Shown here: piece by piece, positions 33,042 to 55,190 of the stretch
Position numbering within the stretch: position 1 is the first letter of the stretch
How the letters are laid out: every line of letters begins with the position of its first letter
Program-made: the position numbers and the translations under genes
The notes under the pieces: model-generated
Seen by the model: the letters and a program-made list of their open reading frames with translations, nothing else
The model's database searches: none
Told to the model about the DNA's origin: nothing
Source of the DNA: an uncultured Bacillota bacterium
Lineage (GTDB): Bacteria; Bacillota; Dethiobacteria; DTU022; UBA8154
Assembly (NCBI GenBank): GCA_937973635.1
Contig: CALJJZ010000035.1
Coordinates: 103,947-167,946, forward strand
DNA length: 64,000 bases
Direction of reading: 5' to 3'

Positions 33042-34172
33042 TCAGGAGTCGATTACGGTCTGGCTGAGCCGGGTATGGGGAGGCAGGGTGAGGCGGGGCC
33101 AGATCTTGACCTCCTCCAGGAGGCAGTGTTCAGCAAGGCAGCACTCCCCTCCCAGCACCACCATCTCTCCCAGGCGGCTGTATGCCCCAATCAGGTTGTT
33201 TGCTCCAAGCAAAGCACCCTCCAGCACCGCCCCGGCACCCAGGCGATTGCCCGGGCCCAAAATACTGCGGCCTACGCTGGAGCCCCGGCTTAAGTACGAA
33301 CCTGCCCCAATTACCGCCGCAGGACCGGCCACTGCCCCTTCTTCCAGGCAGGCCCCGGCCCCCAGGAAAAGGGGGGGGAGAAGCTGCACCCCCCCAGCAA
33401 TATTTACGTGCTGCTCCATCCAGATGCCGGGGCTTACTTCTTCCCCGGGGACGGTAATCCCCCCTTCTCCAGCAAAAGCCAGGTTATGGGCCTGCCGGTA
33501 TGCCGCAAACGTCCCCAGGTCACTCCAGAAGCCCTCGACCACATACCCGTACAGGGGCATCTTCCGTGCCAGCAGCAGAGGGAATAAATCCCTGCTAAAA
33601 TCAAAAAAAGTTCCGGGGGGAACCAGCTCAAGCACTTCCGGTTCCAGGAAATAGGTGCCGGTATTAACCAGGTTGCTGAAAATTTCATGGGGAACTGCGG
33701 GCTTTTCCATATAACGAGTTATACGCCCCTCCCGGTCCAGCGCCGCAATGCCAAAGCCCCGGGGGTCATGATGCCGGAGCAAAAGCAGCGTAGCCAGGGC
33801 GCCCTTTTGCCGGTGGAATTCAAAGGCAGGGATAAGCTCAAAGCCAAAGAGCACATCACCGCTGAGAACGAGCAGCGTCTCCGAGGCACCCGGCGCGGCA
33901 TGGCGAACGCTGCCAGCCGTGCCCAGCGGCTGCGGCTCTACGGCATAAGTAAGCTGCAGCCCCAGGGCAGCGCCGTCGCCGAGATACTGCTCAATGCTCT
34001 CCGGGCAGTAGTGGAGCGTCAACACCGCCCGGCTTACGCCGCTCAACTGCAGTTTTTGGAGGATATAGGAAATTAGGGGACGGTCAAAAAGGGGGAGCAT
34101 GGGTTTAGGCAGCAGGCAGGTAAGGGGATGCAGGCGCGTGCCCAGCCCTCCGGCCATCACCACAGCGTTCAT
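33042..34172 (-). CDS. NDP-sugar pyrophosphorylase (mannose-1-phosphate guanylyltransferase-like)
   Basis: MAGGLGTRL..PKPMLP, PLGTAG, LSGD, EKP, FWSDLG, C-terminal hexapeptide repeats. Confidence 0.88.
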   Translation of the reverse strand: MNAVVMAGGLGTRLHPLTCLLPKPMLPLFDRPLISYILQKLQLSGVSRAVLTLHYCPESIEQYLGDGAALGLQLTYAVEPQPLGTAGSVRHAAPGASETLLVLSGDVLFGFELIPAFEFHRQKGALATLLLLRHHDPRGFGIAALDREGRITRYMEKPAVPHEIFSNLVNTGTYFLEPEVLELVPPGTFFDFSRDLFPLLLARKMPLYGYVVEGFWSDLGTFAAYRQAHNLAFAGEGGITVPGEEVSPGIWMEQHVNIAGGVQLLPPLFLGAGACLEEGAVAGPAAVIGAGSYLSRGSSVGRSILGPGNRLGAGAVLEGALLGANNLIGAYSRLGEMVVLGGECCLAEHCLLEEVKIWPRLTLPPHTRLSQTVIDS

Positions 34173-34256
34173 CTTGATCCCTCCCTTTGAGTTTATTATA
34201 ATCGTTCAGCCATCTTCCGGCAATCTCCGCAAAAATTTCTTTAAAAATTTTTTTAT

Positions 34257-34313
34257 AATTTTAAAAAATTTTTGCAATTTGCCCTTGACAAAAGTTTCGC
34301 ACCATGAGATAAT
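34257..34313 (+). promoter_or_regulatory. Strong SigA promoter with AT-rich 17-mer, driving candidate ncRNA 1
   Basis: AATTTTAAAAAATTTTT (34257-34273), 11 bp, TTGACA (34285-34290), N17, TGn-GATAAT (34308-34313). Confidence 0.8.
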
Positions 34314-34319
34314 CATCAT

Positions 34320-34674
34320 GCAGGTTCCGAGAGGCAGCAAAAAAACCTGCCGGCTCAACAAGAGCAGGGCCACGATCCCGAAAAAGAGCGGCAAGCGTTG
34401 GAGCGTGTCGACTCAGGGAGTGGTGTCACTATAAAGGAGAGCCGGACGTAACGGGAAAGGCAGTGCCGTAAAAGCCAAGGAGGTCCCGAGGTAATCCAGA
34501 CCTCAGGGGCCGGCCAGGCGGTGCCGGACCGGGGCAGCTTCTCCCCATGAAAAAGGAGCCTTCTCCGGTGAGCGCGGGAAAGCCCGTGCAAAGAGGCCGT
34601 GTGGCCTAACGAGCCACAGGCTGGAGAAGCCCTGGGAGAAGGAAAGGGTTTTGGAGATGTCTGTTGGAGCCTGC
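34320..34674 (+). ncRNA. Candidate large structured ncRNA 1 (about 355 nt, possibly extending to about 34815); class unknown
   Basis: Begins 7 nt after the -10; 5' GCAGGUUCCGAGAGG pairs with 3' UCUGUUGGAGCCUGC; internal helices such as 34560-34569/34620-34629 enclose two hairpins; no credible ORF. Confidence 0.72.
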
Positions 34675-34787
34675 TTGCATTGTACAAAAAAAGACGCCTC
34701 AAGCTCCCTGAGAATCATGGGCAGCACAAACTCCGGTGTCTTAAAGCAAAGCATTTTAAATTTTTAAAGCCTTTTTTAAAACTGCTC

Positions 34788-34815
34788 CCCCGCCTCCGGG
34801 CCCGGGGTTTTTTTT
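34788..34815 (+). terminator. Intrinsic terminator downstream of ncRNA 1
   Basis: CCCCG...CGGGG stem followed by T8. Confidence 0.55.
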
Positions 34816-34853
34816 ATACTAAAACCCCCCGTTATCTGACCATTTACCCCGGG

Positions 34854-35088
34854 CTATTTCATCAACCCGGGCAAGAAAGTAGCGATCTGGGGGAAGAGGA
34901 TATTGATAAACATCGCCAGGATCAAGGCCAGCCAGTACGGGGTGACCCCTTTGAACACCGTCTCCACCCGGCGCATAGGTCTGGGCTGGGGCCGGCGCTG
35001 CAGGGGCCGGCACTTTGGGCTGGCAGCCTGCCAGGACAAAAGAACCCAATAAGATGAACACAAGCAAGCAGCTAAAAAGTTTTTTCAT
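34854..35088 (-). pseudogene. TRAP transporter operon remnant: lipoprotein N-terminus joined out of frame to a DctM C-terminus
   Basis: MKKLFSCLLVFILLGSFVLAGC (lipobox)-QPKVPAPAAPAPAQT, then in another frame VETVFKGVTPYWLALILAMFINILFPQIATFLPGLMK, typical of the last DctM helix. Confidence 0.72.
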
Positions 35089-36875: not shown

Positions 36876-37418
36876 TCACGGCATCTCCTTCAAGGCCGCC
36901 ACCACTTCCAGGTTGCGGTAACGTTCCTGGTGGTCCAGCCCGTACCCTACCACGTAGAAGTCTGGCAAGCTGAAGCCGCAGTAATCCAGAGGGATATTGA
37001 CGATACGCCTGGCCGGCATGTCCAGAAAAGCGCAGACGCGCAGGCTGGCAGGGTTGCGCGTCCGCAAGTTCTGCATAAGATAGTTCAGGGTCAGGCCCGT
37101 ATCCACAATATCTTCAAGGAGCAGGACATGCCTTTGCACAATACTGCTTTCTAGGTCCTTAGTAATGCGCACGATGCCCCGGGAAGAAGCAGCTCCGGCA
37201 TAGCTGGAGATGCCAATAAAATCAAGGACAAAGGGTATTTCAAGACAGCGGCTCAAGTCCACGGCAAAATAAACGCTGCCGCGCAGCACCGCTACCAGGA
37301 CAAGATCCCCCTTACCGCTGTAATCGGCTGAGATCTTTTCGCCCAGCTCTTTGACCCTAGCTTTAATCTGTTCCCTCGTCAATAAGATCTCCAAATGGTG
37401 GCCTGCCTCCTGTCCCAT
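36876..37418 (-). CDS. hpt: Hypoxanthine phosphoribosyltransferase
   Basis: VLRGS, ISSY, LLEDIVDTGLTL, VVGYGLD..RYRNL. Confidence 0.92.
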   Translation of the reverse strand: MGQEAGHHLEILLTREQIKARVKELGEKISADYSGKGDLVLVAVLRGSVYFAVDLSRCLEIPFVLDFIGISSYAGAASSRGIVRITKDLESSIVQRHVLLLEDIVDTGLTLNYLMQNLRTRNPASLRVCAFLDMPARRIVNIPLDYCGFSLPDFYVVGYGLDHQERYRNLEVVAALKEMP

Positions 37419-37427
37419 TTTTTGGCT

Positions 37428-38435
37428 TTATTCCCCTTTCTCTTCAATCCCGTATTTCTTGAGCAAACCCCGGAAATCCCGCCCATAGATAATCTTAACC
37501 TGCACTTCCGGGTAGATCTCCTTGAGGCGGCGTATTTTTTTATTTTTTTTCCAGACCAGTTGTTGTTTCTGGGTAGTCAGCTCCAGGTACAGATCCTGCT
37601 CGGGCAAATAAAAATCGGGGGTAAAGGCCTCCGTTACCGTCCCTTCGCTGTCCCACTCCAGGGGAAATGTTTTGGGCTCATACAGCCATTTGATGCGGTA
37701 AAAATCAAGCATACGGGCAAACTCGGCCTCGCTGGGGTGGGCAAAATCAGGAGCGGTGCCGGACTGGCGGTTCCCCTCGCCTCTAAGGTCGAGGGGAGTT
37801 TCAGCTTTTTCCTGCTCCCAAAAACGCTGCTCCAGTTCCTGCGCCGTGATTTCACCGGCCTCCTCTTTCAAACGGGCGGCGGTAACAATTAGGCCCGCTG
37901 CCTCCTCCGGGCCCGTTACGCCTGTATTGATGAGCAGATGGTAGAAGGTGGGGTCAAGCCAGTCATAGCCAAAGACCTGGCGCAGGTATGCTTCCCGGTC
38001 CCGGTCCTGTTCCAGAATCAGGCGCGCTGCGGCGGCCTCGTCAAGGTTGTAGAGCCGGCAAACCCGTTCAATTCTGCTCTGCATAGAGGCAAAGATCTTC
38101 ACGTGCAGCGCAGGGGGAAAGTCATGGAAGAGGAACTGGGCACCCCGCCCCACGATTACTAGATTTTCCCTGATAGCCAGATCATAAAAATATTCATGCA
38201 GCCCTTCCAGATAACGGCGGCGCCTGCTTTCGAGCTCCCATCCCGCTGCCTGGTCCGCCGGGCTGATATTTTTTTCGTCAAAAAAAGAAAGCTCCGGTTC
38301 CAGGATGCCGATGGAACGCATCCTGTCGGCGATTTTTGCTTTGTTAATCAGCAGGTAGCCCGTCTTCTCGGCAACCAAGCGCGCCACAAGTTCTCCTGCG
38401 CTGCCGAAATGACGGGAAATGGTGATGACGGCCAT
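37428..38435 (-). CDS. Cytidylate-kinase-like family protein fused to a PD-(D/E)XK-like domain
   Basis: VITISRHFGSAG, VIVGRGAQF, YHLLINT (Cytidylate_kin2-like); C-terminal FAHPSEAEFA..WLYEP..FTPDFYLPEQDLYLELTT. Confidence 0.75.
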   Translation of the reverse strand: MAVITISRHFGSAGELVARLVAEKTGYLLINKAKIADRMRSIGILEPELSFFDEKNISPADQAAGWELESRRRRYLEGLHEYFYDLAIRENLVIVGRGAQFLFHDFPPALHVKIFASMQSRIERVCRLYNLDEAAAARLILEQDRDREAYLRQVFGYDWLDPTFYHLLINTGVTGPEEAAGLIVTAARLKEEAGEITAQELEQRFWEQEKAETPLDLRGEGNRQSGTAPDFAHPSEAEFARMLDFYRIKWLYEPKTFPLEWDSEGTVTEAFTPDFYLPEQDLYLELTTQKQQLVWKKNKKIRRLKEIYPEVQVKIIYGRDFRGLLKKYGIEEKGE

Positions 38436-38517: not shown

Positions 38518-38574
38518 AATTTTAAAAAATTTTTTAAAAATATTGTTGACAAACGAAGACTTTGCTTATATAAT
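38518..38574 (+). promoter_or_regulatory. Consensus SigA promoter with the same AT-rich 17-mer, driving candidate ncRNA 2
   Basis: AATTTTAAAAAATTTTT (38518-38534), 11 bp, TTGACA (38546-38551), N17, TATAAT (38569-38574). Confidence 0.88.
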
Positions 38575-38580
38575 AAGGAT

Positions 38581-38859
38581 AGACAGGTTCCGAGAGGTCC
38601 AAAGGTTAATCCTGAAACCGGTTGTCTTGAGCGGTCGGGCCAGGAGCCAGGTGAAAGCTATGAGCAGCGGGGAAGGGCGCGCCAGCGGCCATCCCGGTTC
38701 GAGCGGAAACCCGGCTGAGATGGAAGGCTGCAGGTCTGGTGCTGAAAGAAAGGGGCAAAAGGGGAAGGTGCAAGGTGCTTCCGCTAGTGCCCGTGAAAGT
38801 AGGCTCCAGGCAAAAAGAAACCGGGGGAAAAACCGATACAGGTCTGTTGGAACCTGTCT
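38581..38859 (+). ncRNA. Candidate large structured ncRNA 2 (about 279 nt), paralogous to ncRNA 1; class unknown
   Basis: Begins 7 nt after the -10; 5' AGACAGGUUCCGAGAGG pairs with 3' UCUGUUGGAACCUGUCU, followed by a U-rich tract; nested helices CCGGUU/AACCGG, CGGGC/GCCCG, GCGCCAG/CUGGUGC. Confidence 0.75.
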
Positions 38860-38922
38860 TTTATTTTTTGTCACTTTTTTTATATAGCGGTTTTATCTTT
38901 GCTCTTTATCTTTGTCGGCACA

Positions 38923-39660
38923 TTAATACCTTTCCCAGAGCGGCCGGCTTAGCTCCGCCACCTCCGCGAAAAACAGCTCCAGATCAGGGGTGACGATCTC
39001 CCTGCTCCGTTCAATAATATCTGTAAACTGGCCGAGGTCAACGGCAGTAACCTGCCGGCGCAGAAACATCTGGTCACGGTAGCCAAGGGCCAGTGAACGG
39101 GCGTCCATTTCACCCCGCTCAATAAATTCCCTGAAAAGGCGATACCCTTGCTCAAGCAGGTCTGCCCGGCCGGGGAAGATGATCTCCATGTTTTTACAAA
39201 TCCGGGCAATCGTACCCGTTGCAGCCAGGGCTTGATGCAAGCGCGTTAAAAGATCCGGCCTTCTGGCATAAAGATAAAGCTCGGCGCCCATCTCGATGAA
39301 ATTATGGGCTTTCCACCAGCCTTCTGCAGGGGACAGGTCGCAGGCTTCGAGCACAGCCTTTATCAGCGGCCTTGCTTTTTCATAACAATAGCCCTTTTCA
39401 TAATCGCGGTACTGCTGGTCACTGTAATAATCAAGGCCGCGGGGGTCAATCCCGTGGCTGATTACCCCCCGGCAGAACAGGCCCATGGTCCTGCCGTGCC
39501 CGTTAAGACTTTCCCAGAACCTGACGCCGAGGGAGTGGCTGTAATGCCAGTCATAACCGCTGAAAAACAAAACATCGGGGAAGATACTTCCCAGCACCGT
39601 TTCCAGATCCCTTTGGGCGAGGGCTTTTTCCGCAAAATATAAATGGGCCAACGGGTACAT
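38923..39660 (-). CDS. Conserved hypothetical protein, zinc-dependent phospholipase C/P1-nuclease-like motifs
   Basis: MYPLAH, LGSIFPD, SH, SHGID..LDYYSD, AHNFIE pattern. Confidence 0.55.
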   Translation of the reverse strand: MYPLAHLYFAEKALAQRDLETVLGSIFPDVLFFSGYDWHYSHSLGVRFWESLNGHGRTMGLFCRGVISHGIDPRGLDYYSDQQYRDYEKGYCYEKARPLIKAVLEACDLSPAEGWWKAHNFIEMGAELYLYARRPDLLTRLHQALAATGTIARICKNMEIIFPGRADLLEQGYRLFREFIERGEMDARSLALGYRDQMFLRRQVTAVDLGQFTDIIERSREIVTPDLELFFAEVAELSRPLWERY

Positions 39661-55113: not shown

Positions 55114-55190
55114 CGGGGCGTAGCGCAGCTTGGCAGCGCGCTTGGTTCGGGACCAAGAGGTCGCGAGTTCAAATCTCGCCGCTCCGACCA
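55114..55190 (+). tRNA. tRNA-Pro (anticodon CGG)
   Basis: CGGGGCG/CGCTCCG acceptor stem, CTTGG-TTCGGGA-CCAAG anticodon arm, GTTCAAATC T-loop, encoded CCA. Confidence 0.97.

Follow-up and report, generated by a model that had tools for sequence, protein, structure and literature searches.

The RNA gene at 34320-34674

The 64,000-nucleotide (nt) window analyzed here (positions 103,947 to 167,946 of the forward strand of contig CALJJZ010000035.1, GenBank assembly GCA_937973635.1) comes from an uncultured Bacillota bacterium (Dethiobacteria; DTU022; UBA8154). At 34320-34674 of the window, on the forward (+) strand, lies a real RNA gene that is promoter-driven, strand-specific and supported by covariation. 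Its 355-nt product belongs to a previously undescribed family, whose members we call handle RNAs after the conserved helix (the handle, or P1) that pairs one end of the molecule with the other. The features of the gene, in window coordinates, are:

34230..34284, +: AT-rich, UP-element-like stretch of putative function before the -35 hexamer, seen by inspection here and likewise in four relatives
34285..34313, +: sigma-70-type promoter, TTGACA-17 nt-TG-GATAAT, with an extended -10 (11/12 matches)
34320..34674, +: structured RNA, the "type A" handle RNA, 355 nt (fold z-score, homology limits, covariation, no Rfam match)
34320..34348, +: 5′ strand of P1, the handle, with core CCGAGAGG at 34327-34334 and G34331 in a G.G mismatch (folds; 97.5% paired; table of 77 sequences)
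34350..34445, +: arm I, helix P2 plus an inner hairpin with conserved GAGCGGCAAGCG / GUCGACUC (11/27 pairs changed on both sides)
34448..34535, +: arm II, a long irregular hairpin with the tip GAGGU-AAUCCAG-ACCUC (helix 10, 5/10 pairs changed on both sides)
34538..34641, +: arm III, a CUUCUCC/GGAGAAG helix around GCGCGGG...CCCGUGC and a second hairpin (five folds, structure-aware alignment)
34646..34674, +: 3′ strand of P1, with core UCUGUUGG at 34660-34667 and G34663 facing G34331 (folds; table of 77 sequences)
34681..34686, +: TGTACA just 3′ of the RNA, a recurrent downstream motif (UGUAC/UUGUA in 30/77 family sequences)
34794..34815, +: terminator-like hairpin and U run where the primary transcript may end in this genome; not kept in relatives

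The minimum free energy of the forward strand is -168.9 kcal/mol, compared to -130.9 ± 5.6 for 100 dinucleotide shuffles (z = -6.77), none of which folds as well; the reverse complement reaches a z-score of only -2.81. The minimum free energy structure includes the closing stem, the CUUCUCC/GGAGAAG helix, and the hairpins GCGCGGG-AAAG-CCCGUGC, UGUGGC...GCCACA, and GAGGU...ACCUC. The helices and positions listed in the initial annotation, made from the letters of the window, are borne out (CUUCUCCGGU at 34560-34569 and GCUGGAGAAG at 34620-34629). That annotation had also proposed a densely structured, stand-alone RNA rather than an untranslated region, with no gene downstream on this strand for it to regulate in cis. 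The RNA has its own promoter, and its strand asymmetry, together with the covariation and kept architecture described below, points to an RNA and agrees with that proposal. The next forward-strand open reading frame (ORF) begins 800 nt further on, past the terminator-like site and a convergent ORF. Mechanically called ORFs of 111-152 amino acids (aa) overlie the structure and are not counted as genes.

The promoter ends 6 nt before the RNA, which would therefore be transcribed from about 34320, where the closing helix begins. The TTGAC of the -35 hexamer, the -10 element, and the first 18 bases of the RNA are invariant in all five sequences from the genus, and in the alignment homology to the relatives begins at the promoter and ends at 34674. 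Because the terminator-like hairpin at 34794-34815 is not conserved, we take 34674 as the mature 3′ end.

Conservation and covariation within the genus

Among 61 related genomes, BLAST finds matches in all four other genomes of the same genus; the 28 remaining genomes of the family give none. Each match consists of a 5′ block and a 3′ block 355-382 nt apart. Folded independently, the five genus RNAs all adopt the same plan, with P1 closing at about positions 29/327, a four-way junction, and three arms of 96-113, 82-96, and 92-116 nt, respectively.

Covariation was measured across these five sequences on a MAFFT alignment (A2) with its RNAalifold structure, which has 93 predicted pairs and 90.6% of cells paired. 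Both sides have changed in 26 of the 93 pairs, as compared to 11.8 ± 2.5 in 500 column shuffles, none of which reaches 26; the count falls to 3-8 when the partners are slid by 1-3 columns. MAFFT aligns arm III poorly, and we added a purpose-written, structure-aware star alignment. Being guided by each sequence's own fold, it is biased towards structure, and its figures should be read with that in mind: 509 of 590 cells are canonical (86%) versus 37-47% when slid, and 32 of 124 pairs show compensatory change versus 10-17 when slid.

The individual helices of the initial annotation fared unequally. The CUUCUCC/GGAGAAG helix stands on covariation, its pairing kept by double changes that are read from the folds (UUCUCA/UGAGAG and CUCUCAU/AUGAGGG in relatives), although RNAalifold draws this region differently. 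The UGUGGC hairpin, by contrast, is an insertion present in just two of the five sequences, and GCUC-AACAA-GAGC has a competitor in the long-range helix P2, which is better supported. The UGCCG/CGGCA helix is invariant within the genus and hence carries no covariation signal.

The handle and the family that it defines

We define a handle RNA by three features: a promoter of its own, a structured body, and a P1 helix, formed by its two ends, that contains a purine-purine mismatch and the core CCGAGAGG / UCUGUUGG; the RNA at 34320-34674 has all of these. Family members are 129-411 nt long, with near-invariant ends matching the two core strands and bodies that vary by lineage.

The family extends beyond the genus. 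A covariance model built from the 5′ strand and arm I retrieves all five genus members and a 184-nt RNA in another genus (G025, E = 1.6e-7), whose promoter and two end strands agree with those of the genus members, with arm I alone between them. Under laxer filters, two weak matches (E = 0.49 and 0.97) turn out to be RNAs of 332 and 328 nt; they share the promoter, start with CAGGNCCCGAGAGGCA, and end with GUCUGUUGGGGCCUG. Four further weak matches (L055, L056, L058, and L059) resemble coding sequence and were dropped. In many genomes, and in the present window, a scan with the 3′ strand reveals another exact copy of it at a distance of 2-4 kb; in the window it marks a second handle RNA:

38546..38574, +: promoter of the second handle RNA, TTGACA-17 nt-TATAAT (promoter-plus-handle pattern)
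38581..38859, +: second handle RNA, "type B", about 279 nt, with a U-rich tail (z = -5.91; no Rfam match)

Type B shares the end strands of type A and has a different body; these two are the only handle RNAs in the genome. Mechanical ORFs at 38543-38887 (+) and 38566-38874 (-) overlie the type B RNA.

A class-wide pattern (TTGACA, 26-37 nt, CARRNNCCGAGAGG) matches 34 of 149 genomes of the class, with no match for the reversed control. By family, it occurs in 19/32 genomes of f1 (plus the genome studied here), 4/73 of f3, 8/23 of f6, and 2/6 of f8. In a phylum sample it occurs in 6 of 401 genomes, four of them within the class (including the genome studied here); of the two outside it, G278 contains a convincing 277-nt member and G527 is a pattern match. 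Relaxed searches add members beyond the strict pattern, with GAGAGA, GAGAAG, and similar variants. One other family has a diverged form, 141-147-nt rods that start with AGCCCCGAGAGGUC and end with GAUCACUCGGGGCU; another diverged set comprises RNAs of about 335 nt that start with CAAGCUCCAAGGAAUUCC and end with GGUUCGUUGGAGCUUG. As read from their sequences, the RNAs of about 335 nt retain the G.G mismatch while the flanking pairs have changed. Architectures of the body range from a 143-nt rod to the four-way junction, and the bodies have no common motif (even the most frequent interior 8-mer is limited to 9 of 36 representatives). In two families, tandem units lie 4-5 nt apart (L140:1608-2020, L154:1-207, and L173 on the reverse strand); the second unit has no promoter of its own, which implies co-transcription and cleavage between the units.

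A metagenome scan with a second pattern gave four loci, three of them near-copies of genomes already used, and one with the genus-specific pattern gave none; in a scan of genome contigs, just 4 of 37 loci are real. A 28-mer of this RNA, sought with up to three mismatches in 400 genomes of the phylum, was found in its own genome alone, the query being too specific. Eleven Bacteroidales matches of the contig scan proved to be one conserved protein-coding sequence with a chance likeness to the RNA 5′ pattern. Loci where the 5′ pattern is coincidental (L017, L019, L023, L025-L027, L029, L034, L039, L041, L044, and L045) are a warning for searches that use a pattern only. Two further observations concern the surroundings of individual members. 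Two tRNA genes lie just upstream at L128 and L140. At L141, L142, and L143, which are short handle RNAs of one distant family, a palindrome, GTATAC-CGG-GTATAC or a near variant, lies about 35 nt before the RNA promoter and resembles the operator of a dimeric regulator.

P1 itself consists of 10-11 base pairs, the G.G mismatch, and 4-5 further pairs with conserved G-U wobbles, followed by a purine-rich internal loop. We tabulated 77 distinct handle sequences gathered by a pairing rule, under which the CC/GG pairs are invariant by construction; reversed or complemented, the rule gives 20 raw matches in 1.5 Mb, so that some members of the table may be false. The mismatch is G.G in 72 of the 77 sequences, and the pair adjoining it is G-U, likewise in 72. 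The six outer pairs covary; for example, pair o3 is GC in 48, AU in 19, GU in 5, UA in 3, and CG in 2, and pair o1 is UA in 36, UG in 20, and CG in 16. On the opposite strand, C-A mismatches would take the place of the G-U wobbles, and the P1 helix therefore belongs to RNA of the forward strand. A -35-like hexamer lies within 50 nt upstream of 69 of the 77, and a U-rich tract directly follows P1 in 59. UGUAC or UUGUA occurs within 25 nt downstream in 30, as compared to 2% of random 25-mers from the same loci.

None of this corresponds to a family in Rfam 15. At gathering thresholds, the sole match in the whole window is a tRNA at 55114-55187. With E up to 10, 34150-34900 yields 11 chance-level rows, the best inside the RNA being RMST_8 (E = 0.43; 19.8 versus 80 bits); the relatives and other family members match no family at E 0.05-1. 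In the titles and abstract openings that our literature search covered, we found no publication treating either an RNA of this kind or the pair of proteins described next.

Association with a CMK2nuc-hpt gene pair

Downstream of the RNA, on the opposite strand, lie two genes that accompany handle RNAs elsewhere:

36876..37418, -: hpt2, a second hypoxanthine phosphoribosyltransferase (Hpt) gene, paired with CMK2nuc (TIGR01203)
37428..38435, -: CMK2nuc, 335 aa, an N-terminal kinase-like domain (PF13189) and a C-terminal PD-(D/E)XK-nuclease-like domain; candidate partner of the RNA (profile and fold searches, adjacency)

In the typical order of the lineage, lysS is followed by a 245-aa ORF, the type B RNA (opposite strand), CMK2nuc, hpt, and, convergent on the opposite strand, the type A RNA. 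Here, hpt2 and the type A RNA are separated by 2.2 kb of other genes, namely a sigma-54 activator and small ORFs.

Handle RNAs are steadily adjacent to, and co-occur with, this accessory gene pair. We found hpt and/or CMK2nuc in the flanks of about 1.5 kb of 36 of 42 handle RNA loci collected without reference to proteins, several of these loci being overlapping views of one place. In all 15 loci fetched, hpt lies within 2.5 kb of CMK2nuc, and in 14 the two are directly adjacent. Profiles of the RNA ends occur in proper order beside CMK2nuc at 18 of 20 further loci of the class that the strict pattern had missed, and an RNA stands beside CMK2nuc at 12 of 16 loci in other families and classes; in G278, from another class, the order is again RNA, hpt, CMK2nuc. 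The adjacency persists regardless of orientation, with RNA and genes on opposite strands here and on the same strand in one family; in that family, RNAs lie before CMK2nuc, between the two genes, and after hpt.

At the genome level, CMK2nuc is present in 84 of 149 genomes of the class and 21 of 251 sampled genomes of the phylum. It is present in 33 of the 34 pattern-positive genomes, and in the exception the RNA lies at a contig end. Within family f1, 11 of the 13 pattern-negative genomes have no CMK2nuc, and the other two carry variant RNAs (L153 and L174). In five genomes without CMK2nuc (90-96% complete), a relaxed 5′ pattern found no handle RNA; it gave three matches, none of them a member, versus 21 in the control.

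The hpt2 product is a genuine Hpt by NCBIfam, scoring 192 bits against TIGR01203 (cut-off 150), and is 54% identical to the product of the housekeeping hpt gene, which lies in the order spoIIE-tilS-hpt-ftsH at C17:13882-14385. CMK2nuc belongs to a "cytidylate kinase family protein" group with more than 1000 database members. Its N-terminal half matches two uncharacterized "putative kinase" structures (profile E = 3e-21, Foldseek E = 4e-13), and by inspection its P-loop, SREFGSGGE, is degenerate, without the usual Lys-Ser/Thr. The C-terminal 110 residues are the best-conserved part of the protein. This domain resembles T7 endonuclease I weakly (E = 0.011 and 0.033). Among Atlas clusters, phage endonuclease I and DUF1064 lie nearest to it (0.89), a result that we treat as a lead only. 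A structure model of the domain (predicted local distance difference test score 84) finds nothing in Foldseek at E 0.001 or better, and the weak rows are nearly all PD-(D/E)XK nucleases (R2 RLE domain, NucS, Bax1, PvuRts1I, T7 Endo I, Can2, and Vsr); a fold search with full-length CMK2nuc recovers the kinase-like domain alone. In Thermomicrobium roseum, the domain is fused N-terminally to an annotated Hpt (57% identity, E = 3e-34), which ties it to Hpt independently; no handle motif was seen upstream of this fusion:

NC_011961.1 megaplasmid, 368419-369420: 333-aa "hpt" fusion of Thermomicrobium roseum (L185)

Two small ORFs of the neighborhood, of 89 aa (34819-35088, -) and 245 aa (38923-39660, -), match no Pfam or NCBIfam family; the latter is conserved beside type B RNAs and lysS in relatives. 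In a distant genome, a ZMP/ZTP riboswitch (RF01750, 59.8 bits; L145:4203-4287, -) lies about 1.4 kb from the CMK2nuc-hpt pair.

Interpretation of the handle RNAs

We favor, with moderate confidence, the view that the type A RNA is stable and acts in trans, that its handle provides a platform for protein binding, and that the RNA probably works with the CMK2nuc-hpt2 pair. The analysis shows the RNA gene, its fold, the family, the synteny, and the co-occurrence, whereas protein binding, the partner, and the function are inferred. The handle would protect the ends of the RNA, would serve as terminator stem too in most members, and may be the docking site for a dedicated protein, while the variable, GNRA-rich body would carry the lineage-specific part of the function. 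CMK2nuc, together with the second Hpt, is the candidate partner, and the RNA could act on it as scaffold, regulator, or inhibitor.

Several observations weigh against this view. The family was gathered with motifs derived from the handle, so the invariance of the handle is partly by construction; one family keeps the 5′ strand CCGAGAGG while its 3′ strand differs, and the 5′ sequence may thus be conserved for a reason other than P1. The type A RNA of this genome has no U tail, and 2.2 kb of inserted genes separate it from hpt2. Among the 16 CMK2nuc loci outside the class, three have no such RNA (L144, L150, and L151) and one is unclear. In G010 (79% complete), CMK2nuc was not detected, yet there is a 152-nt handle RNA, and at least four copies lie away from the gene pair (L052/L066, L111, L118, and L089). 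Adjacent genes may be lost together or with a missing contig, and the genomes are related, so that the co-occurrence is weaker than its counts suggest. Finally, the nuclease fold is weakly assigned (best Foldseek E = 6.5e-3, phmmer E = 0.011).

Alternative explanations

An RNA antitoxin or inhibitor akin to type III toxin-antitoxin systems is unlikely. Here the handle RNA would keep CMK2nuc inactive and perhaps be processed by it. As with ToxI, a non-coding RNA gene adjoins a nuclease-fold gene (in one family a terminator separates the two), and the promoterless tandem units at L140, L154, and L173 imply processing; the module is also patchily distributed and accessory, and PADLOC gives a weak match to a candidate defense-system protein (E = 1.3e-4). 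However, handle RNA units are large, complex, and ornate (130-410 nt) as compared to the ToxI repeats of about 36 nt; short tandem repeats of the ToxI type were not noticed, no dedicated tandem-repeat search having been made. The nuclease activity of CMK2nuc is only predicted, and its PD-(D/E)XK-like fold joined to a kinase-like domain differs from the ToxN-type fold. The locus includes hpt and is syntenic, a single chromosomal neighborhood (lysS, hpt2) with apparently vertical inheritance across families. None of six pattern matches on viral contigs is a family member, and plasmid records hold no full-length CMK2nuc, only kinase-domain relatives, the Thermomicrobium fusion apart.

We also think it improbable that these RNAs are riboswitch-like elements acting in cis, with P1 as a ligand-controlled terminator that passes a purine-related signal to genes of nucleotide metabolism; read-through would then yield antisense RNA across hpt2-CMK2nuc here, where the RNA is convergent with hpt2, and sense mRNA where the RNA lies upstream on the same strand. 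The constant adjacency to hpt and a kinase-like gene fits this idea, as does the U run after P1 (59/77); both recall riboswitches with terminator-embedded aptamers, which share the U run after the closing helix and the association with nucleotide-metabolism genes. In one family, moreover, the 141-147-nt form immediately precedes hpt or CMK2nuc and has their orientation. That is the only distant family in which a gene follows on the same strand; in the window the next forward-strand ORF is 800 nt away, behind the terminator-like site, and most copies have no downstream gene on their strand. Each copy has a promoter of its own, set at the first base of P1. Conservation lies in the sequence of P1, with no conserved ligand-binding core and no shared interior motif. 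Type B copies face away from the gene pair, some copies lie elsewhere, and tandem copies occur. The copy studied here lacks a U run and is separated from hpt2 by 2.2 kb that contain a convergent ORF and terminators.

It is very unlikely that the handle RNAs are a diverged known family, be it Y RNAs bound by Ro/Rsr, a second 6S RNA, or an RNA like OLE, raiA, or ROOL. Like YrlA, handle RNAs form several paralogues per genome, each a separate small transcription unit, with ends paired in a sequence-conserved stem and variable bodies; in Y RNAs, the terminal stem is the protein-binding site. The 5′ strand GGUUCCGA can be likened to the Y RNA sequence GGUCCGA. However, the irregularity of the handle stem is a G.G mismatch and not the bulged C of the Y RNA consensus, and handle RNAs have no tRNA-like domain, are larger (up to 411 nt), and are ornate; the partner, if any, would be a different protein. 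The TROVE/Ro domain (PF05731) was found neither in this genome nor in 33 genomes of the family, with Deinococcus and Bacteroides controls positive.

OLE, ROOL, GOLLD, and the raiA motif share with handle RNAs their length, their GNRA-rich multidomain folds with covariation support, and their status as stand-alone genes of anaerobic or extremophilic Bacillota whose biochemical function is not established; the promoter strength of the handle RNAs, too, is like that of large orphan RNAs of Bacillota. The Rfam models of these families are nonetheless unmatched, as are all others at E 0.05. Here, moreover, it is the terminal helix and not the body that is conserved across genera, with two or three paralogues per genome and a fixed association with CMK2nuc-hpt2. 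The 6S RNA resembles handle RNAs as a stable RNA with paired ends and a strong promoter, and differs from them in its central bubble architecture.

Housekeeping RNAs of the genome (96% complete), normally encoded by one gene each, were located on other contigs: RNase P RNA (RF00010) on C62 with 308 bits, signal recognition particle RNA (RF01854) on C42 with 184 bits, transfer-messenger RNA (RF00023) on C56 with 186 bits, and canonical 6S RNA (RF00013) on C27 with 98.8 bits. RF00013 has no match in the window, and the fold here is a four-way junction.

The initial annotation had allowed that the RNA might be a sponge that titrates CsrA through many GGA motifs, which we now regard as scarcely credible. 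There are 14 such motifs in the RNA, and the genome does encode CsrA (PF02599, three matches over the cut-off within 7 kb, C47:1356-8264). However, GGA is not enriched in any of the five homologues: dinucleotide shuffling predicts 10.6 ± 2.4 for 34320-34674, and the four relatives have 9-13 versus 8-11.5 expected. A single GGA lies in a hairpin loop in this RNA and none does in the relatives, the positions of the motifs shift among the five homologues, and the GGA-containing loops of the handle are not invariant.

Nor do we give appreciable weight to a DNA-level element, a miniature transposon or recombination site with terminal inverted repeats that mimic an RNA helix: the conserved ends are indeed inverted repeats, with variable interiors and one to three copies per genome, but the conserved G-U wobbles and G.G mismatch make them imperfect, strand-specific repeats, which argues against a repeat of DNA, and the fold is far better on one strand, interior helices covary, most copies have the -35-like hexamer (69/77) and the U tail (59/77), and the place on the chromosome is constant, with synteny from family to family, and there are only two copies in this genome.

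Significance

To our knowledge, large bacterial RNAs supported by covariation and without an assigned family are rare. Earlier such cases, including RNase P, riboswitches, OLE, and omega RNAs, each opened new biochemistry. The handle RNAs are no single orphan and follow an unusual family logic: in families of the class, and outside it, nearly every base of the ends is retained, whereas one body takes the place of another. Their sequences are suited to a new covariance model, which would allow annotation free of the spurious ORFs that overlie handle RNA genes.

The reading that we favor, a trans-acting RNA with a protein-binding handle, also joins three unknowns in one testable hypothesis: the RNA, the "cytidylate kinase family protein", and the reason for a second hpt. 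In its furthest form, which we advance tentatively and consider possible rather than probable, the handle RNAs would be the RNA subunits of a new ribonucleoprotein module in anaerobic Bacillota-type lineages. The handle would dock CMK2nuc, working with the second Hpt, and interchangeable bodies (one to three paralogues, sometimes in tandem) would tune or gate the enzyme pair, so that the whole may constitute an RNA-controlled system of nucleic-acid cleavage and purine salvage, or a defense-like one.

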